Virus record (IMG/VR): IMGVR_UViG_3300016665_000824
Span: 32,001-96,000 of that record
Source: a virus
Reading direction: 5' to 3' (one strand)
DNA: 64,000 bases
In this document: one piece after another, positions 5,322-25,450 of the stretch
How positions within the stretch are numbered: position 1 is the first letter of the stretch
Layout: each line of letters starts with the position of its first letter
Translations under genes and position numbers: made by a program
The notes under the pieces: model-generated
Database searches by the model: none
Seen by the model: only the letters and a program-made list of their open reading frames with translations
Told to the model about the DNA's origin: nothing

Positions 5322-5352
5322 GGTAACAAGGACTTGAGTCCTTGTTACCTTA
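5319..5352. terminator. Strong hairpin (15-bp stem, 4-nt loop) spanning the stop codons of two convergent genes
   Basis: TAAGGTAACAAGGAC-TTGA-GTCCTTGTTACCTTA; no flanking U-tract. Confidence 0.45.
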
Positions 5353-8300: not shown

Positions 8301-11300
8301 TCGTCTGCACGGAGAATCCCTGCATCTTGAAGGGCGTTAGCCGTTTCAAGCAACTCGCCCAACTTCGCCTTAAATAGCGCAGGATCTCCCGCAGACTTGT
8401 TTAAAGCGTCAAGGGCTGCATTATATTTTGAAGTTGCCTGCTCGATCGCATTACCAATACGAGGAAGATCAATAGCCTGAATTTGCAGGTTTACCGACTT
8501 GTAGGATTCTTGAAGTTTTCTAAGGGCTTCAAGTTCTCGATCTCTTTCTGCGTCTAAACCTTCTACAGCTTGAACCTGATTAATGATTGCCTCGATATTG
8601 TTGTTTCTTTCGGCGATCTCCTTCTTCTTATTCTCGATCTGAATATCAAAACGCGCAGCACCATCTTTGTCGCTTAGCGCTTCCGCCTTGGACTTTTCCT
8701 GCTCTAATTTAATTAAATCCTCTTGGAGTTTCTTCTGAGCAGACAGTCCTATTCCTAGATCAACCCGCCGAGAAGCTGACTGATTTAAGACGTTTTTATT
8801 ATCTTGCAATCTTATTTGGACGGCTTTCTCTTCAAGATTTCCTGCGCGATCGCCTAGACCTAACTTGTCGGAAGCGCCAAACGTTACCGTTCTTAGCCCC
8901 TCTCTTGCCGCGTCACCTGTAAGAGCAAAACCTTCTGTAACGCGAGTACCAATATTGTCTCTCTCTTTTTTAACCTTCTCCCTCAACGCGTCTTCGGAGT
9001 TGGTTGGTTTGCTTTGTAATCCCCTCAACTCTTTGAGTTTTGCGAGCTGTTGATCATACAGCTTTAAAGTGGGGTCATCTTGGAGGATGCTCTTGTCTTG
9101 GATTGAGGCAACATATTTTTCGCGTTCTGAGGTTAGGTTTGCTAGCTCAGAAGCGGCATCCTTTCCTTGCGATTTGTTTAGGATCGCAACCCTTGCGTCA
9201 CTATCTTTGAGCGCATCGTTGAGTTTGTCTACATTGGCTGTAGCTGCTTTTGTTTCCTGATCGACGTAGCCAACCAAGGTTGTTATTGCGGCGAAAGCTG
9301 CGCTTAACAATAATGTAGGACCAATTTCTGCGGCGAGGGCGGCGAAGGATTTGCTGATACCTTTGACATTCTCGGAAATAAACGAGGTAGCGCCTACAGC
9401 ACCCTTTTTGAGGTTTGAATAAAGTCCACCGACACTAACGTTCGCGTTTTGAGTGAAATCAGCAAAGCTAGACTTAGCTCGCGAGCCAAAATCTTTGACA
9501 CCAGAAAGAGCATCTTGGAAACCTGTCTTTAACCCAGCACCTAAATTTTTGAGGCTTAAATCGGGGAGAGAAATAGACTTGACTTGATTGACAAACTTAT
9601 CTATAGCGATACGAGAATTAGCCAAAGAAGCGGGAATATTTAGCTCTCTAAAGAACTTATCGAGTCCCAGTCTCGCGTTTGCAAGAGAGGTAGGGACGTT
9701 GATCTGGGAAAATGCTTTTTCAACCCCGTTGCGGAGGTTTACCAGCGAGGCAGGAATGTTGATATTTGCAAAGGCGTTCCGAATGCTAGCTTTAGTATTC
9801 TCAATTTGCGCGGGGAGATTTGCAAAGATACCAGTTTTTTGACTCGAATCCTGACTGAACCTTCCCTTAATGTCAGATATAAAACTACCAATAGAGTCGC
9901 CCAAGGACTTCAAAGAAGTTTTTGTCTTTGTGGCGATCGCTCCAATATCTTCTGCGAACTGTTTTGTGAACGGGACGGGAATTGGATTGGCAATAATCTG
10001 ACTTCGGAGCGACTTGATTCTGTCGGTAGTCTCCTGATAACTTTTAAGAGCCGCCGCACGAGCTTCGGGGGTTAACGACAGATCTGTAGAGTCTTTTTGG
10101 CTCACGATCGCCTGCTGTTTTAGTCCAGAGACCTCTCGTTTAGCGGCGACAACCTGAGTAGGATTTAGAGTCGTTGACTGAACTGGCTTGCCCCCAAGTA
10201 TTTCTCGAACACTATCGTTTAGCTTCTTGATGCGCCCAAAGGTTTCGCCAATACTGGCTCCAGCACCGCTAATTCCCGTGTTAATTGTCTTAAATACATT
10301 GGAGATTGTGCCACCAAACAGCTTGGTAACAGCGATCGCGATTAGCAATCCGCCAACTACTTTTTGAAAAGGATTGGAGTTCTCGCCAAAAGTAAAGAAC
10401 GGCAATATCGTGTCTGCAACCACCTTAATTACTGGTGCTAATACCGACCCTACCGTATCCGCAAACTTACGAATAGCTGCGGTTACATCCTGAATGATTT
10501 TTTGTAGACCTTTGTTCTTCAGGATTAACTGATCGAAGAAGACAAAACCAACAAATGTTCCAGCACCCAACAAGGCTGTTGATACGGCAAAAGACCTTGC
10601 CGCAGCTCCTGCCGCTTTTAATGAATTAGAGAAGATGCTGTTTACTTTCTCGGTATTTGTAGCGACATCGGCAAACTTGCCCAAGCTCTTGGCTGCGTCC
10701 GCAATCAACGGGCTAAACGAGCCAAATAGTTGGGACTTACCAACAATGCCTGAGAAAGCTGTTAAGGCGATCGGCGCTGCCTTCGTAAATCCTTGCAGTG
10801 CGGTTCCTAGCGCAGGAAATGCTTGAGTAAGTCCAATCAGTTTTACCCCAAAGCCACCTAGTGTTGGCAAAGCGGCAGTTATAACTCCCGCGAATGGCGA
10901 GAACGCACCGAGAACTTTGCCCAACTCTTTTTGGACTAAGCCAGCAGCACCAGGGATCTTGTTTAGATTCTCCGCCAACAACAGGAATCCAGCAGACCCT
11001 CGACCGACAACCGAACTTAAATTAGCAAAAGTGTTGACAACCCCGTTAGTACGCTTGTCAAGCAGGAAGAGAACTTCTCCCAAACCTGGTACAAGATTAA
11101 ACATCAACGAGAAGCCTTTGTTTAATGCCCCGATCGCGCCCGAAAGAACTTTTGCGCCGACGGAGATGCCGATCCAAATCCCTCCAAGAGGACCTACAAC
11201 ACCTGCAATTTGTTCAAACACATTAATAGCTGGCTGAACAACAGCAAGAGTAAGGCTCATCGCATCGGAAAAAGCCTTTACTGCGCCAGCGAGAGACTTG

Positions 11301-13780
11301 AATAGGTATTCTGGAACCTGCCCAAAGATCTGGAAGAATGGCCCCGCGAGACTTTTTAGGGTCGCAATCACGTTCTTGAATACGTCAAACAGTATTCCTG
11401 CGAGACTCCCTACTTGAGCAGCGATCGCGTCTTTATTCTTTGAGAAATACTGGTAAAACCCGTCAAGTTCCGCTACTAAAGGTGCGAGGAATTTCTCCCC
11501 AGCGAGTCTGCCGATCTCATCAACTAGCTCTTGAATATTGCTAACAATCCCACCCACGGACTGAGCAGCTAGCTTGTTTCCAGACTTAAATGCTTCTAAT
11601 CGACCTAAAAGCTCTTTGACGAAGGTTCCTTGAGACTTCCACTTAGCCACCATCTCATTGTTGAGGTTAAGCGATTTGGCAAGAGCTGAGTTTTGGTCAA
11701 TAGTTCCCGAAGTTATACTAACAACCTCTTGACGGGCTTGATATAAAGGTATGCCAAGCGTTCCGAGTGCGGCGGCGAACGAGGTTGTAATATTAGCAGC
11801 GTCATTCAAGGACGCGCCAATGTTGCTTGCCTGCCCAGCAACGATCTGAAAAACCCCGACAAGATCTTTACTGGTTACGCCGACCAGCTCTAACGAGTCT
11901 TTACGAATTTTATCGATCGCCCCTTCAACCGCAGGGCCAACCGCCTTGATCGCTTGAGTTGGATCTGATACGCGATCGCCATTAACTACGATTCTATTGG
12001 TTGCCGCTAAGCTCGCCTGAGTAGAGAGTAGTTGCTCTTGGAGCCTGATGTTTTGCCCAATCAACAGATCGAAAGGGCCGTTTTGTACAAATCCTTGGAG
12101 TGCCTGCAATCCCAATCCCAAGAAAGCAAGTCTCTGAGATACTTCAAAGATCGCGTTGGTTGCCTTGCCAGCACCTTCGCTAATTAGATTGAATACTTCT
12201 AGTGGTTCCGTCGCCCCCGCCACTGGAGCAACCACTGCGGCGGCAATATCTACAGGTTCTTGCAGCTTCGGGGCTATCTCTTGAGTCTTTTGAAACCCCT
12301 TAACGATAACATCATCAACACTATCGATGACAGTACCGACTTCGGCAAGGATTGTTGATCTCAGTCCATCAACAAAATTCTTACCTGCGATCGCGCCAGT
12401 ATCTTTTAAAAGCGAACTAAATGTTCCGCCAAAAAACTCGTCAATCTTGGTTGCAAGTTTTTGCAGTGAGCCATCCCCGCTTCCGATAGAATCAATCGCC
12501 GCGCCCAACCCTCCGTCAATAGCATCGACAGCTTTTAGGGCTAAATTCCTGAGAGGCGCAAGGATGCTAGTATCTTCTACGCTAAACAAGCTATTGAGAG
12601 CCTGTCCAACGCCTCCCTTTTGAGTCTCTATTAAAGGGCGGAGGATGGCAAAAGCGGATCTTAAATCCTCTGGAATTGCTTTTTCTAGTCCATTAAATAA
12701 CTGTCCAGACAACGCATTTCCAAAATCTTGCAACTCATTAGAGGCAACAATCGACCCCAAATTTGCCACCCCGATCTTGTTGGCAATCAGTTTTGCTAGT
12801 GGTGGTAGTGGCAACTTATCTACAAGCTGAGGGATTCGCCCCGCTAGGCGGTTGATCAGCTCAGATACAGAGCCGCCTAACTGTTCGTCAAGAATTTTAA
12901 ATTGATCGGTCGCCTCAGATCTGCTGCCGACGATTGCCCTGCCGACCGATCCTCCTAAAGCGCTAGATAAGCGCCCTACAACTCTTTGTCCGTCCTCAAC
13001 GTTTGGCGCGATTGCGTTAACGGCAAAAGCTTTAGCAGCACCCGATACCGACCCACCAGCCAACTGCTTCGACACTTCCGACAGCAATCCAGTTTTTGCC
13101 GCAGTCCGAAATGAGTTGGCGACAATTGAGGTTAAATCCGCCCCGAAAGCTTGGTTAACAATACCTTTTAAAGCGTCGGGGAGTCCTCCCCCAACAACGC
13201 CCGAAATGAGTGAGTCGGCGATCGCGTTATCTAGCGTTCCAGTAAAAGCCTCAACTCCCACTCCAAGCTTGCGCTGAATTTCTTGATTTAGCTTTGAAGC
13301 CCTAACATTTGCTTCTAACGCTTTACCGAAACTGTTTGCAGAATCGCTAAGTATCTGCGTAATTCTCTTGCCGTTATCCGAAAATATTGCAGACTGAGCT
13401 TGCTCTGCCGACTGCTTAGATAAGAATCCTCCTCCGACATCTTTTCCTGCAGAGGTAATCCCCTTGATTACCTTTGAGAGCGGAGCTAGTTTTGAAACTG
13501 CACTGTCGGCGACATTCGAGATCTGTTCTAAAAATATTTTGCCCGACTGCGTATCTAGTACATCTCGAACCGACTGAATTGCGTCTCTCAGCCCTCCAAA
13601 CGTGCCAATCGCGGTTGCCCCTACCGTGCTGATCGTTCCGCCAAGGGCTTGTACAGATCCCTTTGTTACGTCCGCAACAACACCAACACTTTTTAGACCA
13701 GCAGCTATCTCCGAAACTTGTTTGCTTGCTTGATCTTTCGCCTGTATTAAGATCTCAACAATATTGGTTTGCGGAGCCAT
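5345..13780 (-). CDS. Giant virion protein, tape-measure-like (tail length tape measure or ejection/internal virion protein)
   Basis: Uninterrupted 2811-aa ORF; Gly/Ala/Ser-rich hydrophobic N-terminal third, long E/K/Q/A/L-rich coiled-coil centre, internal tandem repeats, position between head and tail-fiber genes. Confidence 0.6.
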   Translation of the reverse strand: MAPQTNIVEILIQAKDQASKQVSEIAAGLKSVGVVADVTKGSVQALGGTISTVGATAIGTFGGLRDAIQSVRDVLDTQSGKIFLEQISNVADSAVSKLAPLSKVIKGITSAGKDVGGGFLSKQSAEQAQSAIFSDNGKRITQILSDSANSFGKALEANVRASKLNQEIQRKLGVGVEAFTGTLDNAIADSLISGVVGGGLPDALKGIVNQAFGADLTSIVANSFRTAAKTGLLSEVSKQLAGGSVSGAAKAFAVNAIAPNVEDGQRVVGRLSSALGGSVGRAIVGSRSEATDQFKILDEQLGGSVSELINRLAGRIPQLVDKLPLPPLAKLIANKIGVANLGSIVASNELQDFGNALSGQLFNGLEKAIPEDLRSAFAILRPLIETQKGGVGQALNSLFSVEDTSILAPLRNLALKAVDAIDGGLGAAIDSIGSGDGSLQKLATKIDEFFGGTFSSLLKDTGAIAGKNFVDGLRSTILAEVGTVIDSVDDVIVKGFQKTQEIAPKLQEPVDIAAAVVAPVAGATEPLEVFNLISEGAGKATNAIFEVSQRLAFLGLGLQALQGFVQNGPFDLLIGQNIRLQEQLLSTQASLAATNRIVVNGDRVSDPTQAIKAVGPAVEGAIDKIRKDSLELVGVTSKDLVGVFQIVAGQASNIGASLNDAANITTSFAAALGTLGIPLYQARQEVVSITSGTIDQNSALAKSLNLNNEMVAKWKSQGTFVKELLGRLEAFKSGNKLAAQSVGGIVSNIQELVDEIGRLAGEKFLAPLVAELDGFYQYFSKNKDAIAAQVGSLAGILFDVFKNVIATLKSLAGPFFQIFGQVPEYLFKSLAGAVKAFSDAMSLTLAVVQPAINVFEQIAGVVGPLGGIWIGISVGAKVLSGAIGALNKGFSLMFNLVPGLGEVLFLLDKRTNGVVNTFANLSSVVGRGSAGFLLLAENLNKIPGAAGLVQKELGKVLGAFSPFAGVITAALPTLGGFGVKLIGLTQAFPALGTALQGFTKAAPIALTAFSGIVGKSQLFGSFSPLIADAAKSLGKFADVATNTEKVNSIFSNSLKAAGAAARSFAVSTALLGAGTFVGFVFFDQLILKNKGLQKIIQDVTAAIRKFADTVGSVLAPVIKVVADTILPFFTFGENSNPFQKVVGGLLIAIAVTKLFGGTISNVFKTINTGISGAGASIGETFGRIKKLNDSVREILGGKPVQSTTLNPTQVVAAKREVSGLKQQAIVSQKDSTDLSLTPEARAAALKSYQETTDRIKSLRSQIIANPIPVPFTKQFAEDIGAIATKTKTSLKSLGDSIGSFISDIKGRFSQDSSQKTGIFANLPAQIENTKASIRNAFANINIPASLVNLRNGVEKAFSQINVPTSLANARLGLDKFFRELNIPASLANSRIAIDKFVNQVKSISLPDLSLKNLGAGLKTGFQDALSGVKDFGSRAKSSFADFTQNANVSVGGLYSNLKKGAVGATSFISENVKGISKSFAALAAEIGPTLLLSAAFAAITTLVGYVDQETKAATANVDKLNDALKDSDARVAILNKSQGKDAASELANLTSEREKYVASIQDKSILQDDPTLKLYDQQLAKLKELRGLQSKPTNSEDALREKVKKERDNIGTRVTEGFALTGDAAREGLRTVTFGASDKLGLGDRAGNLEEKAVQIRLQDNKNVLNQSASRRVDLGIGLSAQKKLQEDLIKLEQEKSKAEALSDKDGAARFDIQIENKKKEIAERNNNIEAIINQVQAVEGLDAERDRELEALRKLQESYKSVNLQIQAIDLPRIGNAIEQATSKYNAALDALNKSAGDPALFKAKLGELLETANALQDAGILRADEVAGAFQKVATNVSADRDLQIKAQEAITAAYKKEADRRIAIYDAQLSQIQALLATGRISESESIALSGQLEEKKIQAQSEADQKALRARQQILETNANEQKQQIKRDRELAEAQLAAATGDPSKIRQVREAQAPVLQGKIDDTSQQIKDAEARKKALQESISTGVAGDNAAEDVKKVTDELAVLQSRLNSLQSQKGTLDSTLKLSEDTQGQLEGITKQIEDGEKALSSLKAGNAETLQRFNTVKDAPFFNSSEYTAQIKAEQDAIAKKESELRTLQTKRDQLSSIAKPDAERQNLAKNSIADANKKELDLVKATAAQKARLEEDADNKRKDAEAKIAKARSERFVKGLDAQIKETLAAEKVGETQRLAQIAQLRKSGIKLESEIKLQETAERKRSITLELQLEQQKQKAIADLEKKGVGVSKETKNANLIKVAELSKQLAEAELAAIEGLVSAVRDRLVLESQKYAVTIEQQNLKLERQKLLFTALEKGLENQSRLSESANKLAQSTVALRESEFAALNKIYDRQQAAIRAAGGQGNFADLELEEKKLILAEKLAVLKLNSLKQQQKFEAESLEREIQKRDLLLERKKVENEIAIAKKKVDIASQDAAIKAAELEVKLRPQSEEAKLKLAQAKLGQEKNFLELGGLQQEKGFIADEAKVNEIVNKNDRQALANKQQGETNTAIGDVIGATRDPALQERLQREQLARLTQNTGTAALTTTDVSNAVAAASQPVNVRGASFKNPTSALLGQVEQGGVFTAAPEPKPDNAPFATSFEELAKKYPDKGMAGSFEELNKKYPAQANSFEELNAKYGGKPTEEAKPEQAIASSFDKLTQQIDEGFSKVLVAPDLKVKDLTAGLEAEFNRVSKQISENPVTLKIDDKAFEEAQKKLDKPIALLDEGQLQRAEALAQAFGSLGGKDLVPQQQGNPTGAALGTSGNITVNAPIAINTQSNISSAAGVGNDVQKAVNDTLNNVLRRVAGVTSGVR
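5872..6000 (-). repeat. Three imperfect tandem ~42-48-bp repeats near the 3' end of the giant ORF
   Basis: Encodes SFEELAKKYP / SFEELNKKYP / SFEELNAKYG. Confidence 0.65.
9581..9820 (-). repeat. Four tandem 60-bp (20-aa) repeats inside the giant ORF
   Basis: Encodes NIPASLVNLRNGVEKAFSQI / NVPTSLANARLGLDKFFREL / NIPASLANSRIAIDKFVNQV / NLPAQIENTKASIRNAFANI. Confidence 0.7.
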
Positions 13781-13823
13781 AAGAATAACCGAGAGAGAGT
13801 CTTCTCAGTTATTCTTGTGGGGT

Positions 13824-14171
13824 TTACTTTTGCTTTAGCTTTTCTGGCTCATATCGCGACACCAAGGCGATAAGCAGATCTTGAGACGGCTTTATTTCTG
13901 AGTCAGCCCATTCTTTGAAATACTTGTGATATCTAGAACAGCTAGCCTCGGCTTTAGCGGTTTGCTCTAGGGCTAGCTGCTTCGTGGGGTCGCTATCAGG
14001 GAGGGTCTTTAACCCCTCCTCTTTTCCTAGCAGACTATACGAAGTCGAGCAATACCTGTAATCTTCGGCGATCGCTGTCGCTGCCGACTTGGACTGAAAA
14101 GACCTTACAGCGCCAACTGAAAGCAACGCTAGCACGACTACCGCCCCTAATGTGATTGGATTAAGCTTCAT
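13824..14171 (-). CDS. Small protein with N-terminal signal/anchor sequence
   Basis: Likely start at MKLNPITLGAVVVLALLSVGAVRS (ATG 14171) rather than track start 14288, which overlaps upstream gene; two Cys. Confidence 0.4.
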   Translation of the reverse strand: MKLNPITLGAVVVLALLSVGAVRSFQSKSAATAIAEDYRYCSTSYSLLGKEEGLKTLPDSDPTKQLALEQTAKAEASCSRYHKYFKEWADSEIKPSQDLLIALVSRYEPEKLKQK

Positions 14172-14220
14172 TGATTTTTGTGATTTCTTCACGAAGATTA
14201 TAGCGCGATCGCCTCGCAAT

Positions 14221-16428
14221 TTATCCCTTACCGTTACTGGGTTTTGAGGTTGGCTTATAGACATCATAGAGAGAGCCAATCTTCCCATTCTTCTTAGAGG
14301 CGTATAAAATCATAGGATCTTGACCCTCCATAGGGGCGAAGCCAGCCTTTTCGTAAATACTCTTACGCTTACTGCCAGCCCCATCTTTGTCATAAGCCCC
14401 AGCCGTAAGAATAGAGTTGTCGGGCATAGCCTCAATATGCTTGGCAAACGAAGCCTTTGTCATGCGAATAATTTGTTTTGCTCCAGAAGCCCCAAGGTTG
14501 GCGGACTCCTCCTTGTTATTGGATTCGTTTATGGCGAAAGAAACCTCGTAGACACTTCCTCCAGAAGCTTCTTTTTTGTACACAGTCGTAAAGGTGTACA
14601 AGGCTGGTCCAACAGAAGCTACAGTATAAACCCCACCATTCTTTCTATCCCTGTAAGTGAAGCTGTTCGATTCTTTGTCTACGTCAATAAGATCCCGACC
14701 CTTAATAGACTGAGTTTTTCTTGCCAAGGCGAGCTTGGTCATTCCGATAAGACCTTTTGCTTTGTCTTTAAGGGCTGGGCTTAAATCAGATCTATCCAAA
14801 GCCCGATCCGCCACTTTCCCCAAGGCTAAACTCTGCTTGTAGGTCATAATCAGTGCAACATCTGAAATCTTGTAATCTTTTGTCGCTTGAATATTGCCAA
14901 TACCGACGACTCCAGCTACCACTGAACCTACGCTACCTGCGACGATCGCTGCCTTGCGAGCGCCTTTGTTAGAAAGTAGTCCGATAGCCTTGTCTACTGG
15001 TGTCTCCTTTTTTTGTAGGGGCGGCTGAGGTATAGAGAATTCCGTTTTTGGTTGTTGTGACTCGCTTGGATTACCCCCTTTTGTTGACTTGCCTCGGTTT
15101 GCAGCGATCGCCGCCGCACCACCAACTAAGGCAGCAGCACCTAAACCAGTACCAACATTTCGGGCTAAATTATTCTCGCTTTTTTTCTCGCCGATCTTTT
15201 GACAGGCGTTTCCACGCTGGACATAGCCTTCCTTGCATTTGAGCGTTCTACCCTTGTCGTAGCGCAAAGATACCGACATACGCCCCTCAAGATAAGACGA
15301 ATCATTCTGTAGATCGGCATCAGTCCGCCTTGTAGTTGCACTTTGATAGATGTTGCTAAATAGGTAAAGAACTTCGATATCCTCGTCATCCTCAACCGAG
15401 TCTCCCCTCTTCTCATTTATCTGGGATATCTTCTCGTTTGTTTTAGCCTCTACGTTTTCTCTAAAGTCCTTGAGTCCACCCCTCTTTGTTGCGAGGGTGA
15501 GAGCAGTGCCAAGAAGAATGGTGTCTCGCTCAGCTCTTCTTAGAACCTTCTGAAAAGGAGATAAGGTAGATTCATTCTTACCACCCGAAATCGACTTGGA
15601 CACATATTCTCCCGCAATGCGTTGAATTTCAGGATCTTTAGACCACTCGGAAGCTACGGATGAGCCATATTTCAAGGCTGCGCTACGAGCTTTTGGATTG
15701 GTCAGCACCTCTTTTGCGATAACCATAGAGGCTTTTTTCTTTGCTTCAACTAAGTTTGTTTCGTTACTAAATTCAGGAGCGACAAAAGTTCCGACAGCGC
15801 TGGCTACTTCTGGCTTTTCCGCAAGAATACTCAAAATTGCGGTAGCTTTATCTCTGTAAGCAGGATTGTTTAAATCCTTGATGCGCCTTTTAATCAATAC
15901 TTGAGATAAATTGTCTCCCTCACTTTTGATTTCACCTTTCTTCTCTTTTGACAAAAGGTTTGCCACTACAGAGACAGTCTTGTTCACCGCCACCGAAGCC
16001 GCCTTTTTCGTTGCGCCCAATATAATCTGATTCTTTTTCTGAGAGATCGCAGCCCCAGTTACCGCAACAACGGTACTGGCTCCAGCCGCCAAATACCTCT
16101 TCGCCAGAGGAAGTCCTTTCTCCCCTTTTTTGGAGGCAGTAGAACTCGAAAGAAGGGCAACAGGGGCGGGATCTACGGCTCTGTTTTCTTGCGGAGATCT
16201 TCTCGATGCGATCGCCGCCACACCGCCGACTAAAGCCGCAGCCCCTAGCCCTGCGCTAATATTTCGAGCTAAATCACCCCCAGCCTTCTTCTCGCCAATC
16301 TTCTGGCAAGCAGCCCCGCGCTGTACATAACCTTGCTTACACTTAATCTTCTTCCCCGCATCTTGACGTAGAGCGACAGACACCTGCCCCTCAAGATAAG
16401 CTAAGTCACTGGCTAAATCTCTCGTCAT
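14221..16428 (-). CDS. Cys-motif/hydrophobic-helix protein with duplicated anchor module and GNAT-like C-terminus
   Basis: 735 aa; two copies of CK[QE]GYVQRGxAC followed by GLGAAALVGG-type hydrophobic segment; C-terminal GASGAK...IYEKAGF resembles GNAT acetyltransferase motifs. Confidence 0.6.
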   Translation of the reverse strand: MTRDLASDLAYLEGQVSVALRQDAGKKIKCKQGYVQRGAACQKIGEKKAGGDLARNISAGLGAAALVGGVAAIASRRSPQENRAVDPAPVALLSSSTASKKGEKGLPLAKRYLAAGASTVVAVTGAAISQKKNQIILGATKKAASVAVNKTVSVVANLLSKEKKGEIKSEGDNLSQVLIKRRIKDLNNPAYRDKATAILSILAEKPEVASAVGTFVAPEFSNETNLVEAKKKASMVIAKEVLTNPKARSAALKYGSSVASEWSKDPEIQRIAGEYVSKSISGGKNESTLSPFQKVLRRAERDTILLGTALTLATKRGGLKDFRENVEAKTNEKISQINEKRGDSVEDDEDIEVLYLFSNIYQSATTRRTDADLQNDSSYLEGRMSVSLRYDKGRTLKCKEGYVQRGNACQKIGEKKSENNLARNVGTGLGAAALVGGAAAIAANRGKSTKGGNPSESQQPKTEFSIPQPPLQKKETPVDKAIGLLSNKGARKAAIVAGSVGSVVAGVVGIGNIQATKDYKISDVALIMTYKQSLALGKVADRALDRSDLSPALKDKAKGLIGMTKLALARKTQSIKGRDLIDVDKESNSFTYRDRKNGGVYTVASVGPALYTFTTVYKKEASGGSVYEVSFAINESNNKEESANLGASGAKQIIRMTKASFAKHIEAMPDNSILTAGAYDKDGAGSKRKSIYEKAGFAPMEGQDPMILYASKKNGKIGSLYDVYKPTSKPSNGKG

Positions 16429-16763
16429 TTCTTGCTCCGCTTTTTAATCATCTTGCTAATAGCTTCAGCTCCATTAGCCACTTTAGACTCAACCTTGCCC
16501 GTAGCTCGACCCGTGTTAAAGATTGCCTTACCAGTATTAAAATCCTCTTTCAATCCTGTTTTACCTTTATCGGCAAGTTTGGCGATCGCCACAGCAGTCA
16601 GTCCCGCGATCACGCCACGACCAACTGCGCCAGCAACACTCTTAATCGCTGTTTTAAGTTTGCCTTTACCACAAGTAGCGCCTTGAGGGATGCAGTAGGT
16701 TTTACCATCTTCTCCTTGGCAGGGTTTGCCGCGATCGCACGTTGTGTCTAGTCTAATCTTCAT
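16425..16763 (-). CDS. Small Cys-knot/hydrophobic-helix protein
   Basis: 112 aa; CDRGKPCQGEDGKTYCIPQGATCG then Gly/Ala-rich hydrophobic helix; 4-nt overlap with neighbours. Confidence 0.55.
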   Translation of the reverse strand: MKIRLDTTCDRGKPCQGEDGKTYCIPQGATCGKGKLKTAIKSVAGAVGRGVIAGLTAVAIAKLADKGKTGLKEDFNTGKAIFNTGRATGKVESKVANGAEAISKMIKKRSKK

Positions 16764-18468
16764 ACTTATTTTTCACCGCTTTTTCCACCGCAAGTCTGGC
16801 TGCAATACCAATCGCGATCTTAACTATGGGATGAGAACCTTCTGCGTAAGAAGGAGAGGCTTTTTGTAACGCTGCAAATGAAGCTTTCGTGCCTACATAT
16901 TGCGTTGCCGCGTCAGAAAACATCAATAGCGCAGTTTTTTCTGTCTGACCTAACGAGGAGTCGGACAACGTTCTCTCTGTCGCATCACGAGCAACTTTAC
17001 CTCCAAAGGCTCCAACCAAACTAGAACCAATCTCATATCCAAGCATCTTGAGTTTGTCTTTTTCTTGCCTCCCAATCGATTTTAAGGTGACAAAATCGCC
17101 CACTTGCTGGACAAAGTTCTTTTTCGCTTGCGGAGTTTGAATCATGGCTTGGAGGCTTCTGCCTGCGCTTGAATTGCGGAGTTTTCCAATAGAGCGGGTT
17201 AAGCGATCTCCTAGTCCGCCCCTTCCTTTTACTGTGGATAGAATAGCCTCCCCGACCTGCATCCCGTCCCTAGCCTTCTGCCTTAAGTCGTGTTGCTTCC
17301 CCTTAGGGGCATTAGCGATTAGGGCTAGCGTAGTCGCCGAGGCTGCTGCTACCCCTATTGTTGCCAAGGTTCTTGAGGAAATAAAAGGTTTTCTCTTTTC
17401 TGACCCGCAGGTTGCGTTTTTTGGGATACAGTAAGTCTGACCGTCCTCGCCCTTGCACGGCTTTCCGCGATCGCAGGTAGAATCTATTCTATTTTGAATA
17501 GATCTTGTTTTTTTGTAGATGTATCCGCTAGTCCTCCCCGTCTTAGATCTCAAAAAAGAATCTGTTTCTGTACTGATTTTGCGTGCAAACCCCTGATAAT
17601 CCTGAAAACGATCGGTCACAGTTCTGGGTTGCTTGTCCTGCCATTTTTCTGTTAATTGCCTGTTTAGATTGGCGTGAACGTCAGCCAACTCTTTAGCTAG
17701 TGAGCTACTAGGAGAAAATGCCCCCTCTCTTTTAGCCTGTAATACAGAGGTGGTTTCCGCTCCAGTCGCACGAATTTCTTTGATGTTACTAAAAAACGCT
17801 CCTACTTTTAAGTCGGCGGGACTAAAGGCTGACGTATCTCCAACCCCAGCAATATCTGGGTGATTGTGAGTCATCAGTACTGTGTTTTTTGCGGCTTTTT
17901 GATTATACGCATCGGTTATTCCAAGAGAGACCGAGCCTATCTGCCCTTTTCTGATCAGTGAAGGCTTGCCATCCACGTCAAAAGCAAAAAGAGTCTCGAA
18001 ATCATTATGCTGGATCTTTCTTTCTGCCGCGTAAACACTAATTGCAAGTTCTTTGGGGAGGTGGCTATATGCAGGAGCATCTCTTGCGGGAATGCCATTC
18101 TTGGCTACGTCTTCTCGTTCTTTCGCAAACTCCTTATAGGTTTCAACATCATCAAGCTTCTCTCTTATAACCTTATTGGCAATCATGGCTCCCACCCCCA
18201 GCGCTAAAAACTTAGCCGCCGCCTGAGGATCTTTAGAAGCTAATGCGGCTCCTGCCGCTAGTACAGTCAGTTTTGCAAGAGTTCCAGTTCCATCGCCCTT
18301 ACTAGCTGTGGATAGGGAACCAGTTCTAGATATCGGATGACAGGCGGAGCCTCTTTGGACATAACCTTGCCGACAATTGATTTTTTTGTACTCATCCCGC
18401 CTCTCCACATATCGCGATCGCGACAGTAGATACCCCATTTCGTACTCGTTCTTGTTATCTAGTCTCAC
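16753..18468 (-). CDS. Cys-motif/hydrophobic-helix protein with JAB/MPN-like (JAMM) signature
   Basis: 571 aa; N-terminal CRQGYVQRGSAC plus hydrophobic segment; central THNHP...SPAD (aa 200-219) resembles RadC/JAB HxH...SxxD; C-terminal CDRGKPCKGEDGQTYCIPKNATCG plus hydrophobic segment. Confidence 0.55.
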   Translation of the reverse strand: MRLDNKNEYEMGYLLSRSRYVERRDEYKKINCRQGYVQRGSACHPISRTGSLSTASKGDGTGTLAKLTVLAAGAALASKDPQAAAKFLALGVGAMIANKVIREKLDDVETYKEFAKEREDVAKNGIPARDAPAYSHLPKELAISVYAAERKIQHNDFETLFAFDVDGKPSLIRKGQIGSVSLGITDAYNQKAAKNTVLMTHNHPDIAGVGDTSAFSPADLKVGAFFSNIKEIRATGAETTSVLQAKREGAFSPSSSLAKELADVHANLNRQLTEKWQDKQPRTVTDRFQDYQGFARKISTETDSFLRSKTGRTSGYIYKKTRSIQNRIDSTCDRGKPCKGEDGQTYCIPKNATCGSEKRKPFISSRTLATIGVAAASATTLALIANAPKGKQHDLRQKARDGMQVGEAILSTVKGRGGLGDRLTRSIGKLRNSSAGRSLQAMIQTPQAKKNFVQQVGDFVTLKSIGRQEKDKLKMLGYEIGSSLVGAFGGKVARDATERTLSDSSLGQTEKTALLMFSDAATQYVGTKASFAALQKASPSYAEGSHPIVKIAIGIAARLAVEKAVKNKYED

Positions 18469-21083
18469 TGGCTTTGCTTCCTCGCTTTACGGCGTTGAGT
18501 TAATGTTGCATTGAGTTTTTTGGCGATCGCGTCAGCAGCATTTACCGACAGGTAATCCACTGCGCTGCCGTTAGTTCCTGAGAAGCTATCGGGGTTTTTG
18601 CCCTTGAATGGAGTTCGACTCCAGAGATCGCCGTCCGACCACAGATCGGTCTTTGGAGTTTTTAGCAGATCTGTATCTACTTTTTTCTTATCTACCTTCT
18701 CTCCCCCAAAACCCAGCTCAGGAGTTCCCAAAGTAACAAGGTGAATTTGTTTAGCAATATAAGTCCCAGCAACATTTCCTTGCGAACCTGTTTTTTGCAT
18801 TGACTCCAAGATGTCCAAAGCCCTTTTTGCTGTTTCTCCACCTTGCTTTAGCCCAATAACAGAAATAGCTGGGTATTCAGTTGAGCTTCCCTCGTATGAG
18901 CTGTTTCCGATAGCGTAAAGTTCCGCAGCCAACTTTACAGCTTCAGGGTCTCGTCCCGCTTTGAGGGTCTTACTCATCACGGCTTCGTAGCTTCTTGCCA
19001 TAGTGTCAATAACACCCATAACCCTGCCCCTAGACTGAGGCGGGAGGGTTCGATCAAAAGAAACCACGTCGCTTTGATCGTAGAAGTCTTTCTCTGCTTG
19101 AGACTGAAGCTTTGATCCGTTACTTTTAATTGATTTGCCCAGAACATCGCTAGGAGTTTCTCCATCTCCTATTGCGATAATGACGCTGGGATTTATTGGG
19201 GTAGGCAAAGTCGTTCGTCCACTTGCTACAATCTCTTGAGCCTCAAGAGCAGACTTCGCTATATTGTTGTTGTATTTAACCCTCGCAGCCACAGCAGCAG
19301 TCACCGTTACTTGACCAAGTACGGCTACAGTATTAATCGCTGCTGCTGTGGGATTGTCTTGATATTTATCCTTGATCGCAGAAACCAGATTCCACGTCTT
19401 TCCTAGCGTTGGGTTTACCGCAGTGATCGCCGCCGCTATTTCTTTTGCCCCCTTGTCGCTAGACTTGCTTCCCGCAACAGAATTAGAGAAAAATCCAAAC
19501 GTCTCGCGGATTTTATCTCTGACCGTGCTATCGGTTAAGTAGTCCTCAATCTCATGCCCCTTGACCGAGCTGACAAACTGCGAAAACCTCTTAGGCAGGA
19601 TTGAGAAAGGATCGTTTTTGGAGGTAATAGTGCGGTTGTTAATGTTCGCCCAGTTCTTGTCGTCTTGAGTTGTGCCACCCGTCAAACCGAAGGATGCACC
19701 GCCAAGTCTGGCGATATTGAGGCGCTTCAGAACTTCTCCACCATCAAGCCCCCTAGCAGGCTTGATCCGACTCAAAATTTCGGCAGCTTCATCAACAACG
19801 TTGCCCCCAGAACCGTGACTAACTACGTTCAAAGGCTTGTCACGATACTTAGAGCCATAAGCATACAATTTAGAAGCCAGATCCACCGCAGCTTCGTTTC
19901 TGCCACCGACAATATTGCTTAGATATTTGCCAAAACTTTCTTTAGCTACATACCCCAGATACAAGGGATTGTAGTTCCCGTTTTTATCCTTTGGGAGAAT
20001 ATCGGTTGGAGGAACATTAAACTCCGAATTGTTGAAGGGGATGACCTGCTGGGTCTTGTTAAACCACTGTTCCCGTTTTGAAGTGTCAAGCGGAGTTTTT
20101 AAATATTCAGCGAGCTTATCACCAGAAGAGCCAAGGTTGGAAAATCCTCCTACAGCAAAAGTTAGTTGAGGTTTGGAGGTTGGCTCGACAGGAGTAGTTT
20201 GTGCTCTTTGGTACGCCATTAGCGCCGATTCAGGCAAGCCTTCTTTGTAGCGATCGCGAGCGGTCATCATTACCGATGAGGGAATGCCCAGCAGTACGCT
20301 TGCCGCTAATATGCCTGCCGCAGGGCGATTGTCTCCAAAAAACTTGCTAATCTTTTCGATATCTTTCCATGCGCCAGCAACGGGTTGGGGTAGCAAACTC
20401 TTAAGAGCTTTCTTGCTAGACTCTGCGCGATTCAAGCCTTCACGAACAATCTTCTGGCGATCGGGATTGGCTTTTTGCAGGCGAATTGATTCTCGCAATT
20501 GAGCCTGACTCATATACGAGTAGCGATACACGCCTCGTTTGCGAGCTTCTTCCTTTAATTCCCGAATATTCTTGTTATCAAGATCGTCCTCAACTGGGGC
20601 AACGCCAACAAATTTCGCTTTTTGAACTTGGTTTACCGCATCATTCAGATCGGAAATCTCTTGTCTATTTAAAGCTTCAGGAACGTCAATACGGCAGGTG
20701 TCCGTCTTTGCAATACAAGCGCCTTTGCAGGATAGTCCAACCTTACAGTTCTTGGGCTTAGAAATTTTATCGGTACGTTGACCGATATTGTTTGCATAAG
20801 CAAGTAAGTACTGATCTGCGTCAGTATCTACTGCATCAGTGCGACCATCCTGTACCTGCTTATACTCAATGCGATCTCCTAATTCCAGCCGAATCAGCTT
20901 TTGATCCTTGTCATCATCACGAAACAGACAAGTGATAAGCCCGTCATTACCGATATTGATATTAAGGATCTGATCGATACTCCCGTAGGCGCGAGAAATA
21001 ATGCGAGTTAATAGCCTCGCAATCGTTCTTCTTGCGGCGAGAGGATCTGTGGTTTGAATTGGTGGTGGTGCGATCGCGTACAT
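18465..21083 (-). CDS. Large virion/effector-like protein with possible alpha/beta-hydrolase-like region
   Basis: 872 aa; CKVGLSCKGACIAKTDTC motif; VVSHGSGG (aa 421-428), NDPF (aa 490-493), KGHE (aa 508-511) in the order expected of a Ser-Asp-His hydrolase, not canonical GxSxG. Confidence 0.5.
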   Translation of the reverse strand: MYAIAPPPIQTTDPLAARRTIARLLTRIISRAYGSIDQILNINIGNDGLITCLFRDDDKDQKLIRLELGDRIEYKQVQDGRTDAVDTDADQYLLAYANNIGQRTDKISKPKNCKVGLSCKGACIAKTDTCRIDVPEALNRQEISDLNDAVNQVQKAKFVGVAPVEDDLDNKNIRELKEEARKRGVYRYSYMSQAQLRESIRLQKANPDRQKIVREGLNRAESSKKALKSLLPQPVAGAWKDIEKISKFFGDNRPAAGILAASVLLGIPSSVMMTARDRYKEGLPESALMAYQRAQTTPVEPTSKPQLTFAVGGFSNLGSSGDKLAEYLKTPLDTSKREQWFNKTQQVIPFNNSEFNVPPTDILPKDKNGNYNPLYLGYVAKESFGKYLSNIVGGRNEAAVDLASKLYAYGSKYRDKPLNVVSHGSGGNVVDEAAEILSRIKPARGLDGGEVLKRLNIARLGGASFGLTGGTTQDDKNWANINNRTITSKNDPFSILPKRFSQFVSSVKGHEIEDYLTDSTVRDKIRETFGFFSNSVAGSKSSDKGAKEIAAAITAVNPTLGKTWNLVSAIKDKYQDNPTAAAINTVAVLGQVTVTAAVAARVKYNNNIAKSALEAQEIVASGRTTLPTPINPSVIIAIGDGETPSDVLGKSIKSNGSKLQSQAEKDFYDQSDVVSFDRTLPPQSRGRVMGVIDTMARSYEAVMSKTLKAGRDPEAVKLAAELYAIGNSSYEGSSTEYPAISVIGLKQGGETAKRALDILESMQKTGSQGNVAGTYIAKQIHLVTLGTPELGFGGEKVDKKKVDTDLLKTPKTDLWSDGDLWSRTPFKGKNPDSFSGTNGSAVDYLSVNAADAIAKKLNATLTQRRKARKQSQ

Positions 21084-21085
21084 GA

Positions 21086-22492
21086 CTATTTTTTAGCTTG
21101 CTTCTGGTTTTCTTCTTCCGCCTTGTTTATGGCGTGGGCTGCGAGAGCTAGAGATCCAGCAGTTGCCGCAACGTTCGCTCCGATCGCGCCAGCAACAGAT
21201 GCTCCGCGACCATGACCACGCGATCGTAAAGCTCTGTAAGTGCCGCTACCGATCGGCCCAGCCAGCGCCTGTACCGCCCCCTTTCCAAAAGCTTTGGCAG
21301 TCTCCCCAGCACAATTCTTTTCTTGAGGAATACAGATCTTTCCGCAAGGCTTAGTACCTGAACCGCACTTTGCGTCTTCACGAAGCTGCTCGACGAATGA
21401 GTCGATGCGCTCATCTAAGGATTCGTATCGACGACTTGTTTTATTCCACACTCTATTTGTAGTCATATTCGCTCTTCTAATTCGTTTTGGCATCTCCCTC
21501 CGAGTTGTTTTAACCTCAGATGCTTTTACGTCTACCGTATTATTCTTGTCAACAAAAGTCTGCATAAAACTTCTAGCGAAATTGTCTACGGCGTTAAGAG
21601 TTGATCGGGTGGTAGATCCCGCCTTTTTTGCCGCCTCGTTTAGGTCGATAGTTTTGTCGGCAAGATTCTTCCTCGCGACGCGATCGCGTTCTAGCCTTTC
21701 TTTTGTTTTTCGATACAACTTACCCGCCGCCGCACCTGCGGAACCAGCAGCTCTTGTTAATAGTGGCTTCTGAGGTTCGGCGATCGCACTACCACTACTC
21801 TTGCCCGATTCACTCGCAGCAATAGTTAATCCACCAGTAGATACCTTGGAAGCAGGAGGGTTGTATGGCAGTCGAGTTGGAGGTGGGGGTGTAGGAGTTT
21901 CAGGTTTATTGACGGGGACTAGTGCTCCACCGATTTCTGGCTTGGGCTTGGGTGATGGAAGGCGATCGGGCGGGGCTAGCCTCCTGCTTTCTATCTCGCC
22001 TTGCCGAGCTGCTTCTCGCTCAAGATCTTTCTTAGCCTTATATCGAAAATACTCCTCTTCTGCCGCAGCTTCCTCTGCTCTCCACCGCGCCCTCCGAGTT
22101 TCGCTATCCTTTTCGCCAGCCTTGTTTGCGCCCTTCTCGATAATGGGGCGAAGACCTACGGTGATGGCTTTATTCGCAATTACACCTGCGCCGAGTGATG
22201 CGGCAGTTCCACCGACCTTGATCGCCGCTTTCTTAGCAAACTCACCAACCTTATTGGGAGGTGACTGAGGAAGTATAGAAGCAGGCTCCGTCACAGGGAT
22301 AGGCTTCTGTTCTTCTGGCTTCTTCCTTAGCGCGATCGCTGCTGCCCCCAACCCACCCAAGGCAAGTGCAGCGCCAACACCCGCAGCCCCTTTCTTTGCT
22401 GCACTGGCATTGCGGAAGTATGAATAAGCCTTACGTCCATTTTGCGCTGGGACTTTAACTTCTACCTGTGCGTCCTGTCTTTCAGTACTCAT
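21086..22492 (-). CDS. Low-complexity basic/Pro-rich protein with Cys-knot motif and Gly/Ala-rich hydrophobic segments
   Basis: 468 aa; CGSGTKPCGKICIPQEKNCAG near C-terminus; several GAAGVGAALALGG-type segments. Confidence 0.5.
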   Translation of the reverse strand: MSTERQDAQVEVKVPAQNGRKAYSYFRNASAAKKGAAGVGAALALGGLGAAAIALRKKPEEQKPIPVTEPASILPQSPPNKVGEFAKKAAIKVGGTAASLGAGVIANKAITVGLRPIIEKGANKAGEKDSETRRARWRAEEAAAEEEYFRYKAKKDLEREAARQGEIESRRLAPPDRLPSPKPKPEIGGALVPVNKPETPTPPPPTRLPYNPPASKVSTGGLTIAASESGKSSGSAIAEPQKPLLTRAAGSAGAAAGKLYRKTKERLERDRVARKNLADKTIDLNEAAKKAGSTTRSTLNAVDNFARSFMQTFVDKNNTVDVKASEVKTTRREMPKRIRRANMTTNRVWNKTSRRYESLDERIDSFVEQLREDAKCGSGTKPCGKICIPQEKNCAGETAKAFGKGAVQALAGPIGSGTYRALRSRGHGRGASVAGAIGANVAATAGSLALAAHAINKAEEENQKQAKK

Positions 22493-22875
22493 CTGTTTGG
22501 CATCCTCGTTAAAATAATTTCCCAGCTAAAACTTTTGTTCTCAATAGTCCCCATTACCTCATTACACTTGATCGAACCATCGACAATGTAATACTTGCCC
22601 TTGCCCGTAAGCTGAGCCTCGGTGTATGCCGCAGATATACCGCTCACCTGATAGTCGTCAATACCAACCTTGATATTAGTGCTTTCAAACAAGGCGACAG
22701 TACGAGGGTTAACCCGTAGAATCGTGGGGTGAGGCAATATCTCTAGCCTTGTTTCTCCCGACGTAGTGCGAGTCACTACTGTTAATGGCAGCACATTAGG
22801 CGCACCGATCGCATCTCCTGCTAGGCGATCGCGCAGTGGTTGAAGTTTGGCAATAATCTTTGAGGCTAGTGACAT
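22489..22875 (-). CDS. Hypothetical virion protein (head-tail joining region)
   Basis: 128-aa ORF, 4-nt overlap with downstream gene. Confidence 0.4.
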   Translation of the reverse strand: MSLASKIIAKLQPLRDRLAGDAIGAPNVLPLTVVTRTTSGETRLEILPHPTILRVNPRTVALFESTNIKVGIDDYQVSGISAAYTEAQLTGKGKYYIVDGSIKCNEVMGTIENKSFSWEIILTRMPNR

Positions 22876-22968
22876 ATCGCTATTGTTTGATGCTCACAAG
22901 CAAACAGGCGATCGCTTGATGAATTAGCGATCGCCTGTTAGATCTCCTTGTACACATGGCACATGAGG

Positions 22969-23388
22969 CTAGAAGGCAATGAATGGTGGCACGGCAGGGA
23001 TACTGTCACCCATAAAACCGCCCGTTAGAACCAATTCCTTAAGCATTAGAAATTGCTGCCCATAGGTGGTTCGAGATAGATACACATCGGAGAATCTGCC
23101 ATTACCGTTTGCGGGGGTGGAGGTTCTCCGATTAGACATAGACTCACCAGTGTCGATCGCCTTAGCATTTGACACAGTGACAGTACCTTCCTCGGTATTG
23201 AGCGCCAAATAGTGAGCAGTCAGCAACATTACCGCCATTTCCGCATTGTCACCCCACTCTTCAATCGAGCAAAACCGCGAATAGAAATTCAGCCAGTTCT
23301 GGATAAAGATCAGCGACTCCCCAACAAAGTCAGAGAATGCTGCCTCGGAAGTGAAAGTATCTGCGGAAACGACGGGGTATGTTGCCAT
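22969..23388 (-). CDS. Putative head-tail adaptor/connector protein
   Basis: 139-aa ORF after capsid gene; AEMAVMLLTAHYLAL segment reminiscent of head-tail adaptor families (from memory). Confidence 0.35.
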   Translation of the reverse strand: MATYPVVSADTFTSEAAFSDFVGESLIFIQNWLNFYSRFCSIEEWGDNAEMAVMLLTAHYLALNTEEGTVTVSNAKAIDTGESMSNRRTSTPANGNGRFSDVYLSRTTYGQQFLMLKELVLTGGFMGDSIPAVPPFIAF

Positions 23389-25440: not shown

Positions 25441-25450
25441 TGGACTCCTC

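Follow-up and report, generated by a model that had tools for sequence, protein, structure and literature searches.

The subject of this analysis is a stretch of viral DNA of 64,000 nucleotides (nt), corresponding to positions 32,001 to 96,000 of the IMG/VR virus record IMGVR_UViG_3300016665_000824 and hereafter called the window, and within it a block of five adjacent minus-strand genes at 22492-14221 (p468, p872, p571, p112 and p735) that carry seven copies of one protein module. The module spans about 55-80 amino acids (aa) and consists of a short helix and an R-x-D motif, followed by a small cysteine knot and, after a basic linker, by a hydrophobic helix rich in Gly and Ala. The knot occurs in a four-cysteine form, C-x5-C-G-x2-C-I-P-x4-C, and in a two-cysteine derivative. 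The block genes are tightly packed or overlapping, and the genes and their modules are organized as follows.

21086..22492, minus strand: p468 gene; N-terminal RQDA and a Cys-less hydrophobic helix, a middle region, a C-terminal four-cysteine module
18465..21083, minus strand: p872 gene; N-domain, four-cysteine motif, Rho_N-like segment, helix, predicted alpha/beta-hydrolase (DUF676-like), helix, second domain
16753..18468, minus strand: p571 gene; module, JAB/RadC-like cargo, module, helical cargo
16425..16763, minus strand: p112 gene; minimal unit of module and short tail, overlapping p571 by 11 nt and p735 by ATGA
14221..16428, minus strand: p735 gene; module, lineage-specific helical cargo (aa 81-375), module, second hydrophobic helix (aa 492-513), C-terminal domain
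21128..21409, minus strand: p468 C-terminal four-cysteine module (aa 362-455); RIDSF..RED, CGSGTKPCGKICIPQEKNC, hydrophobic segment
20694..20783, minus strand: p872 four-cysteine motif (aa 101-130); RTD, CKVGLSCKGACIAKTDTC, then a Rho_N-like segment instead of the helix
18166..18399, minus strand: p571 N-terminal two-cysteine module (aa 24-101); RRD, CRQGYVQRGSAC, hydrophobic helices; 33% identity to both p735 copies
17305..17490, minus strand: p571 internal four-cysteine long-loop module (aa 327-388); RID, CDRGKPCKGEDGQTYCIPKNATC, helix; 44% identity over 91 aa to p112 (E = 4e-20)
16569..16754, minus strand: p112 four-cysteine long-loop module (aa 4-65); RLD, CDRGKPCQGEDGKTYCIPQGATC, helix
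16201..16407, minus strand: p735 module copy 1 (aa 8-76); DLAYLEG helix, RQD, two-cysteine hairpin CKQGYVQRGAAC, basic linker, hydrophobic helix GLGAAALVGGVAAIA (Kyte-Doolittle 1.81 over 19 aa)
15097..15303, minus strand: p735 module copy 2 (aa 376-444); SSYLEG, RYD, CKEGYVQRGNAC, linker, GLGAAALVGGAAAIA; 69% aa and 68% nt identity to copy 1

Three of the seven copies are of the two-cysteine subtype (two in p735 and one in p571), two are four-cysteine copies with a long loop, CDRGKPCxGEDGxTYCIPxxATC (p571 and p112), and two are canonical four-cysteine copies (p468 and p872). Most of these motifs are followed by the basic linker and the Gly/Ala-rich hydrophobic helix, which scores 1.6-2.0 on the Kyte-Doolittle scale over 19 aa. 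The cysteines of the five proteins are almost confined to the motifs (22 of 23, the sole exception being C52 of p872), and none of the other genuine reading frames of the window was found to contain the motif in a pattern scan of both strands. All five proteins are basic, with K+R well above D+E. Searches of Pfam, NCBIfam and PHROGs returned nothing above threshold for them, and these collections contain no model for the module. At its N-terminus (aa 1-57) p468 has RQDA followed by a strong Gly/Ala helix, with no cysteine; the resemblance of this segment to gp045 of Aphanizomenon phage vB_AphaS-CL131 (CL131) is weak (E = 0.22), and we tentatively regard it as a possible degenerate, Cys-less eighth module.

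An earlier note on this DNA had proposed that two homologous segments of about 200 bp within the p735 gene represent an intragenic duplication of a module with a hydrophobic "anchor" helix. This was borne out when the region 13501-21200 was aligned with itself by blastn: positions 16208-16400 matched 15104-15296 with 70.5% identity over 193 nt (E = 1.7e-20), so that the self-alignment named in the note as the check on its claim does contain a significant repeat. Both arms lie inside the single minus-strand open reading frame (ORF) 14221-16428 (735 aa), and residues 8-77 and 376-445 of p735 align without gaps at 69% identity over 70 aa. The near-identical peptides quoted in the note (...YLEGQVSVALRQDAGKKIKCKQGYVQRGAACQKIGEKK...GLGAAALVGGVAAIA in copy 1 and ...YLEGRMSVSLRYDKGRTLKCKEGYVQRGNACQKIGEKK...GLGAAALVGGAAAIA in copy 2) and its helix GLGAAALVGG[VA]AAIA are exactly as it gave them. 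A repeat-family search recovered the core of the p735 repeat as family D1, together with a weaker third copy at 18338-18380. The diverged third copy that had been placed at the start of 16753..18468 is recognizable in the protein, where residues 2-82 of p571 match both p735 copies (33% identity, E = 1e-8 to 3e-8), but not in the nucleotide sequence, where the identity is about 43%. A second nucleotide repeat, 17405-17491 against 16669-16755 (72% over 87 nt, E = 5e-8), corresponds to the four-cysteine module shared by p571 and p112. The note had passed over this repeat, as well as the four-cysteine copies in p468 and p872, the confinement of the cysteines to the motifs and the recurrence of the module throughout the block and in a wider protein family.

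The two p735 copies use the same codon in just 19 of their 48 identical residues, their third-position identity is 0.46 (0.26 is expected from composition) and their longest identical run is 15 nt. Moreover, module copies from the same genome are no closer to one another than to copies from a related phage. Since codon usage has diverged, third-position identity is low and same-genome copies are not closer than related-phage copies, the duplication must be old; as judged from the sequences, the copies are old paralogs whose similarity is maintained by selection on the protein. A recent duplication or a gene-conversion tract was ruled out by the codon data and the 15-nt longest run. The cyanobacterial HIP1 octamer GCGATCGC, which occurs 139 times in the window versus 1.3 expected, occupies matching codon positions in paralogous modules: the sites at 15104-15111 and 16208-16215 code for the AIA with which the helix of each p735 copy ends, and those at 16731-16738 (p112) and 17467-17474 (p571) for CDR of CDRGKPC.

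A family profile built solely from six window copies was searched against 1.84 billion representative proteins and matched 166 protein clusters at E ≤ 1e-3, of which 36 reach E ≤ 1e-10. The giants among the members carry 3-7 modules; in one protein of 2215 aa the profile matched 6 stretches, and in two others, of 2677 and 3641 aa, it matched 7 each. Motif statistics were compiled for 148 listed matches, with the window's own two proteins excluded. These contain 249 canonical, 21 long-loop and 34 two-cysteine motifs, which hold 82% of all cysteines and follow one another at a median spacing of 351 aa. An R-x-[DE] lies at most 18 aa upstream, and usually 6-9 aa before the first cysteine (C1), in 166 of the 203 internal motifs, compared with 12.8% of random windows. 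A motif is present within the first 50 aa in 62 of the 99 larger proteins, and a hydrophobic 19-mer follows within 80 aa after 56% of the motifs versus a background of 18%. By its spacing, the enrichment of R-x-[DE] and its N-terminal placement, the module thus marks the start of a unit, present either as a gene or as a segment of a polyprotein. On these sequence patterns, the unit is a module plus a cargo domain, encoded as a gene of its own or strung into polyproteins of up to about 3600 aa. When a 46-aa motif profile was used to look for homologs, just three small proteins were retrieved.

In the canonical motif, C1-K-x-G-K-P-C2-G-D-x-C3-I-P-K-x3-C4, the glycine at +3 is invariant. The two-cysteine form, (g-k-p)-C-G-K-G-[YFWH]-I-P-x4-C, corresponds to the stretch C2..C4; it lacks C1 and has an aromatic residue in place of C3, and the two-cysteine motif of the window, C-K-Q-G-Y-V-Q-R-G-x-A-C, fits C-x2-G-Y-[VI]-x5-C. 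Motifs of this kind number 34 in the relatives and three in the window. We infer that the two-cysteine subtype derives from the four-cysteine form by joint loss of C1 and C3, which in turn suggests C1-C3 and C2-C4 pairing. A BLAST alignment that had paired the second cysteine of the two-cysteine form with C3 was superseded by the larger set, in which it corresponds to C4. A bare 18-aa knot, CKKGKPCGNxCIxxxxxCH, was also encountered outside the module: twice each in small signal-peptide proteins (the representative proteins P0078, P0091, P0120, P0128, P0133, P0135 and P0082), ten times in tandem in the 527-aa P0057, and after a YHCH motif in an alphaproteobacterial metagenome-assembled genome (L009, 9794-10099). 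These bare-knot proteins have no R-x-D, no helix and no Pfam family. The occurrence of the knot alone, without R-x-D or helix, suggests that it is not a zinc site but a staple, formed by a disulfide or a hairpin, that can stand by itself, and the spacing C-x5-C-x3-C-x6-C, with no CxxC knuckles and with the four cysteines not all kept, departs from that of a zinc ribbon or knuckle. A zinc ribbon is thus disfavoured by both the cysteine spacing and the two-cysteine subtype, and a disulfide or beta-hairpin staple appears more likely from the sequences. The AlphaFold2 model of p735 shows, with low confidence, a helix and then a beta-hairpin in the module. The bare knot, which has no family entry, is an uncharacterised secreted mini-domain in its own right.

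Comparison with other phages showed that the content, number and order of the units as well as the gene boundaries vary. Close p735 homologs are rare, and all of them are found in the same gene order, upstream of a tape measure protein (TMP) of about 2900 aa where the contig reaches that far. In diverged relatives (35-79% identity) both p735 modules and the same architecture are kept. In P0004 both modules and the C-terminal domain are retained around an unrelated intervening sequence, and P0002 is a p112 fused in frame to a p735 homolog. In the relatives L004 and L005, p735 is represented by a 371-aa form consisting of one module and the C-terminal domain, and p571 is missing (it is absent from L004-L006); thus the comparison of copy number that the earlier note had recommended does reveal variation, with one module in these relatives versus two in p735. 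In L006 (IMGVR_UViG_3300008113_000491) a single p735-type module at about 10088-10300 is frameshifted relative to the near-identical L005, owing either to a sequencing error or to pseudogene formation. The C-terminal module of p468 is absent in the L003 ortholog, forms a separate 148-aa ORF in L004 and lies within a 533-aa protein in L005. The order of cargo also differs between proteins, the JAB domain preceding the hydrolase in P0033 and the GNAT-like domain standing first in P0125. The module shuffling postulated in the note is therefore supported by these differences in module number, cargo, cargo order and gene fusion among relatives, as read from their sequences, but not by the two p735 copies themselves, which are old paralogs.

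Among the isolates, gp044, 045, 047 and 048 of CL131 (gp048 with at least five copies) and ORF078-081 and ORF085 of Planktothrix phage PaV-LD carry the module motif, in the form R-x-D-A-x-K-K-x-x-C-K-x-G-x-x-C-G-x-x-C-I-P-K-x-x-x-C, and these genes are located between the head-tail genes and the TMP gene. An independent viral contig of 154 kb contains 10 motifs in six consecutive genes that lead directly to a TMP homolog. A tblastn search of phage isolates with p735 gave no match, scans of viral contigs with the giants P0010, P0014 and P0011 found nothing, and a metagenome scan returned three short contigs.

The cargo was mapped by aligning the window proteins, with their modules masked, to the family proteins. 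Two cargo regions are present in each of p735, p571 and p872, and three of the mapped domains are the following.

19449..20336, minus strand: p872 alpha/beta-hydrolase-like cargo (aa 250-545); elbow HGSGG; aligns to stretches of P0026, P0009 and P0013 that match DUF676 (PF05057) at 1.5e-14, 8e-9 and 3e-10
17719..18054, minus strand: p571 JAB/JAMM-like domain (aa 139-250); invariant E..E..D..THNHP..S..D
14254..14796, minus strand: p735 C-terminal cargo (aa 545-725); GNAT-like, DGxGxKRxxIYxxxGF

The giants contain 3-6 different Pfam-recognisable domains each. The alpha/beta-hydrolases among them match DUF676 (to 1.5e-14), palmitoyl thioesterase (Palm_thioest, 1e-14), Lipase_3, Tle3-like, cutinase and PGAP1; the others match LRAT/NlpC-P60 (to 2e-20), histidine phosphatase (His_Phos_1, 2.5e-25), NUDIX (2e-9), DnaJ (1e-14), PARP/ART, a PI3_PI4/HipA-like kinase (2e-9), GNAT and Rho_N. 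The most widespread unit is aa 20-545 of p872, which overlaps the DUF676 matches of the relatives. The C-terminal domain of p735 recurs within P0055, P0119, P0066, P0125 and others. Sequence searches of PDB and Pfam with this domain gave no significant match; a Foldseek search with a mediocre model (predicted local distance difference test, pLDDT, 50-76) returned almost exclusively GNAT proteins at the top, with a best E of 0.027, and the domain probably adopts a GNAT fold as far as the model can tell. The cargo between the two p735 modules has no relatives beyond its close lineage. The first cargo of p571, which it has in common with gp044 of CL131, was inspected for the JAB/JAMM signature E ... 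H-x-H-x(7-12)-S-x-x-D, and the pattern E..E..D..THNHP..S..D proved invariant across six diverged sequences. Its best PDB profile match is RadC (2qlc), at a weak E of 0.49 across the motif, and one homolog matches Pfam RadC at E = 0.0067. PDB sequence searches with p571, p872 and two domain profiles gave nothing significant, and the Foldseek result for the p571 model is meaningless because the model is too poor.

The block is situated within the structural genes, directly upstream of the TMP gene with p154 intervening. The replication genes (primase, DnaB and Dam methylase) lie on the other side. The neighbouring features are as follows.

41553-43208: portal
27827-24529: DUF2213 prohead protease (26337-27827), cement protein and PF09950 major capsid protein, then small connector genes
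13824..14288, minus strand: p154, a small protein with one strong hydrophobic helix and two cysteines, between the module block and the TMP gene
5345..13780, minus strand: 2811-aa Cys-free tape measure protein (phrog_305), matching the TMPs of CL131 (3e-137) and PaV-LD (1e-95) and L017 (6e-105)

By capsid, protease and TMP, the nearest isolates are CL131 and PaV-LD. The TMP of the window itself has Gly/Ala-rich hydrophobic helices at aa 858-1163. The p154 gene, kept as a 120-aa ORF in L003 and L008, occupies the position where tail assembly chaperones usually lie. The major capsid ORF as called (24529-25728, 399 aa, TTG start) overlaps the cement-protein gene (25451-26323) by about 280 nt; because the homologs have 301-310 aa, the true capsid start probably lies around 25440. 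The related phages L003 (2350-3576) and L008 (4363-5589) have a 408-aa IS605 OrfB/TnpB (Cas12f1-like) gene inserted between head-tail connector genes, and the window lacks this insertion at the equivalent site (about 22875-22969). Rha-type regulator or antirepressor-like genes were also noted (Phage_pRha at window 30870-31595; Bro-N/ANT after the TMP in L003, 21405-22016) and hint at a temperate-like regulatory repertoire, though no p735 relative was found among 185,579 species genomes, where the motif scan yielded only a bacterial YHCH-type small protein. The term "prophage" used in the earlier note is thus unsupported: a prophage in a sequenced genome was rejected on the absence of any relative in this set, and the window looks like a phage genome.

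The homologs of the module proteins in CL131 are virion proteins. Liquid chromatography-tandem mass spectrometry of CsCl-purified CL131 particles detected ORF044, 045, 046, 047 and 048 together with the TMP, ORF049 (PMC6293099, Table S5); ORF045 was represented by 123 peptide-spectrum matches and ORF048 by 175, from 105 peptides (PMC6293099, Table S5). The isoelectric points (pI) of the module proteins are 9.1-10.2, compared with 6.6 for the TMP (PMC6293099, Table S5). In PaV-LD, ORF081 and ORF085 are annotated as virion proteins. CL131 has a tail of 361 nm and a TMP of 2131 aa, and this relation of tail length to TMP size implies that the giant Cys-free ORFs are true tape measures.

In the block beside the TMP gene, a repeated, conserved leader module sets the cargo units off from one another. 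We consider it fairly probable that this module acts as a leader and anchor heading virion-carried, membrane-directed enzyme units in a CL131/PaV-LD-like cyanophage. The units would travel inside the phage particle and be released from it upon infection; the hydrophobic helix, which the particle had shielded, would then insert into a host membrane and so tether lipid-directed and host-modifying enzymes at the site of entry. We infer ejection, membrane insertion and enzyme action at the membrane; for the insertion there are precedents in tape-measure proteins and in T7 gp14 and gp16, soluble virion proteins whose hydrophobic helices later enter membranes (PMC8954989). As every unit begins with the same module, the module boundaries would be the places where units can join or separate, be exchanged for others, or be added and dropped. 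A more far-reaching interpretation, which we view with clear doubt, is that the module serves as a portable delivery tag that would load any downstream domain into the particle and plant it in a host membrane after ejection.

Several observations weigh against the leader-and-anchor reading. The virion evidence comes from CL131 homologs and not from the phage of the window. Instead of anchoring in membranes, the Gly/Ala-rich helices could serve packing or oligomerisation, like those within tape-measure proteins; such a helix comes after only 56% of the motifs, and it is lacking in most PaV-LD copies. The elbow serine of the p872-type hydrolase is not conserved (HGSGG in the window at 19770-19800, aa ~428-437; HSAGG, HGAGG and HDVNG in relatives), which makes the activity of this type uncertain, and the sequences suggest that some of the cargo may be structural and some hydrolase versions catalytically dead. 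The AlphaFold2 models of p735 and p571, built on 4-sequence alignments, both have a mean pLDDT of 39. Finally, disulfides would need to form after assembly, the cytoplasm being reducing.

Some of the same evidence could also be understood if the module were a site of polyprotein processing, at which R-x-D (or the upstream DS[FY]/YLEG) would be cut during assembly or after injection by the DUF2213 prohead protease (26337-27827) or by the JAB-like peptidase of the block. The regular spacing of 3-7 modules in the giants, the strong enrichment of R-x-D at 6-9 aa before C1, the gene splits and fusions at module boundaries and the JAB/RadC-like domain within the block agree with such a role, and autoproteolytic release of domains has been proposed for polyvalent proteins (Iyer et al. 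2017, PMC5512222). However, units that begin a protein retain R-x-D (MKIRLDTTC, MRLDTTC, MKVLRLDAKAC), which would be needless in a pure cleavage signal, the assignment of the peptidase to JAB is weak and L004-L006 lack p571; the mass spectrometry of CL131 was done en masse and has no cleavage readout. We therefore hold processing, though plausible, to be unlikely as the function of the module. Less probable still is that these are internal head proteins bound to packaged DNA, with a zinc knuckle, DNA-binding basic linkers and a helix for oligomerisation. The excess of K+R over D+E, the high pI of the CL131 homologs (9.1-10.2) and four conserved cysteines in proteins synthesized in a reducing cytoplasm would suit this idea, but C-x5-C-x3-C-x6-C contains no CxxC knuckle, the widespread two-cysteine subtype retains only two ligands, the knot is also found behind signal peptides and as a 10-fold tandem array of extracellular type, and the cargo consists mostly of lipid-directed enzymes.

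That the proteins are made during infection as host-membrane proteins (e.g., for superinfection exclusion or lysis) and are not components of the particle would be in keeping with their predicted hydrophobic helices and tight operon packing, yet we find it highly improbable: homologs are abundant in purified CL131 virions, PaV-LD ORF081 and ORF085 are annotated as virion proteins, and the position of the block inside the structural module next to the TMP is conserved. The trivial explanation of the p735 repeat, i.e., a recent tandem duplication, an assembly artefact or mere HIP1 or low-complexity similarity, can be regarded as refuted. Both copies do contain a HIP1 site (15104, 16208) and an Ala/Gly-rich stretch, but both copies and the architecture are kept in relatives at 35-79% identity, synonymous sites have largely diverged, the conserved part includes a non-repetitive cysteine hairpin, and the repeat has an E of 2e-20.

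If the module is indeed a leader and anchor of virion-carried units, it would provide a simple sequence rule for recognizing a large part of the unannotated virion genes in freshwater bloom-associated cyanophages (CL131, PaV-LD and metagenomic relatives), and particle-borne, probably membrane-directed enzymes could explain how these long-tailed cyanophages cross or remodel the cyanobacterial envelope and membranes. The fixed leader with exchangeable cargo would in addition lend itself to the engineering of phages for the delivery of proteins of choice. In the event that the delivery-tag interpretation were also correct, the enzymes that these cyanophages inject and tether to membranes (lipases, LRAT-type acyltransferases, kinases, ART, NUDIX and GNAT) would form an arsenal that is modular and able to evolve, a phage counterpart of the marker-plus-cargo logic of secretion-system effectors and a distinct cyanophage class of polyvalent proteins.

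Constant targeting parts that bring variable cargo into the particle are known from the MuF-anchored polymorphic toxins of temperate phages and from the T4 capsid-targeting sequence. The present module differs from these in that no MuF was detected by Pfam, that it occurs internally as well as N-terminally with many repeats per protein, and that it includes a hydrophobic helix. The most obvious parallel is with the polyvalent proteins (Iyer, Burroughs, Anand, de Souza and Aravind 2017, PMC5512222), polypeptides of phages and conjugative elements that string together unrelated effector or enzymatic domains in variable order. At least two unrelated effector or enzymatic domains per polypeptide, as is characteristic of that class, are found in the giants and in p735, p571 and p872 of the window, and ART/PARP, NUDIX, kinase-like, peptidase and acetyltransferase domains are common to both. 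Polyvalent proteins are thought to travel with the DNA and to act early; for the module proteins, presence in the virion is known from the CL131 homologs. The paucity of polyvalent proteins in cyanobacteria noted by Iyer et al. 2017 (PMC5512222) is a gap that the module proteins would fill, should our reading hold. However, hallmark polyvalent domains (MuF, the PolyVal metallopeptidase, LPD families, ArdC-N, SNF2 and methylases) were not found by Pfam in the window proteins and 21 relatives, and, unlike polyvalent proteins, the units are all headed by the fixed R-x-D/Cys-knot/helix and their cargo is rich in lipases, esterases and LRAT. The text of Iyer et al. 2017 (PMC5512222) does not contain the words "cysteine", "Cys", "transmembrane", "linker" or "lipase".

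The ejection proteins of podoviruses (T7 gp14/gp15/gp16 and P22 gp7/gp16/gp20; PMC8954989) are likewise carried in the virion, have predicted transmembrane helices, are soluble in the particle and refold into membranes, and T7 gp16 also bears an enzyme domain (PMC8954989). The hydrophobic 19-mers of the module proteins score 1.6-2.0 on the Kyte-Doolittle scale, and by analogy they may insert into membranes. No homology to podovirus ejection proteins was detected, PHROGs and Pfam being negative for the five block proteins and tblastn giving no isolate match for p735. The module proteins differ from them further in belonging to a siphovirus-type long tail with a true TMP (CL131), in their more numerous and varied enzyme domains and in the repeated leader. 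With tape measure proteins that have hydrophobic segments or enzyme motifs they share the adjoining gene position and the Gly/Ala-rich hydrophobic helices; p112 matched TMP_2 (PF06791) at 17.1 bits, below the cut-off of 30.2, and the other four block proteins had no match. Unlike the Cys-free TMPs, however, the module proteins are basic, contain cysteines and are separate genes with globular enzyme cargo. Literature searches brought up no account of the module, nor of cyanophage polyproteins with lipase or LRAT domains that are borne in the virion. An intragenic duplication is ordinary when taken alone, whereas the module family to which the p735 repeat belongs is not; virion-carried multi-effector proteins are of a known kind, and what is new is the fixed leader/anchor module that heads their units.

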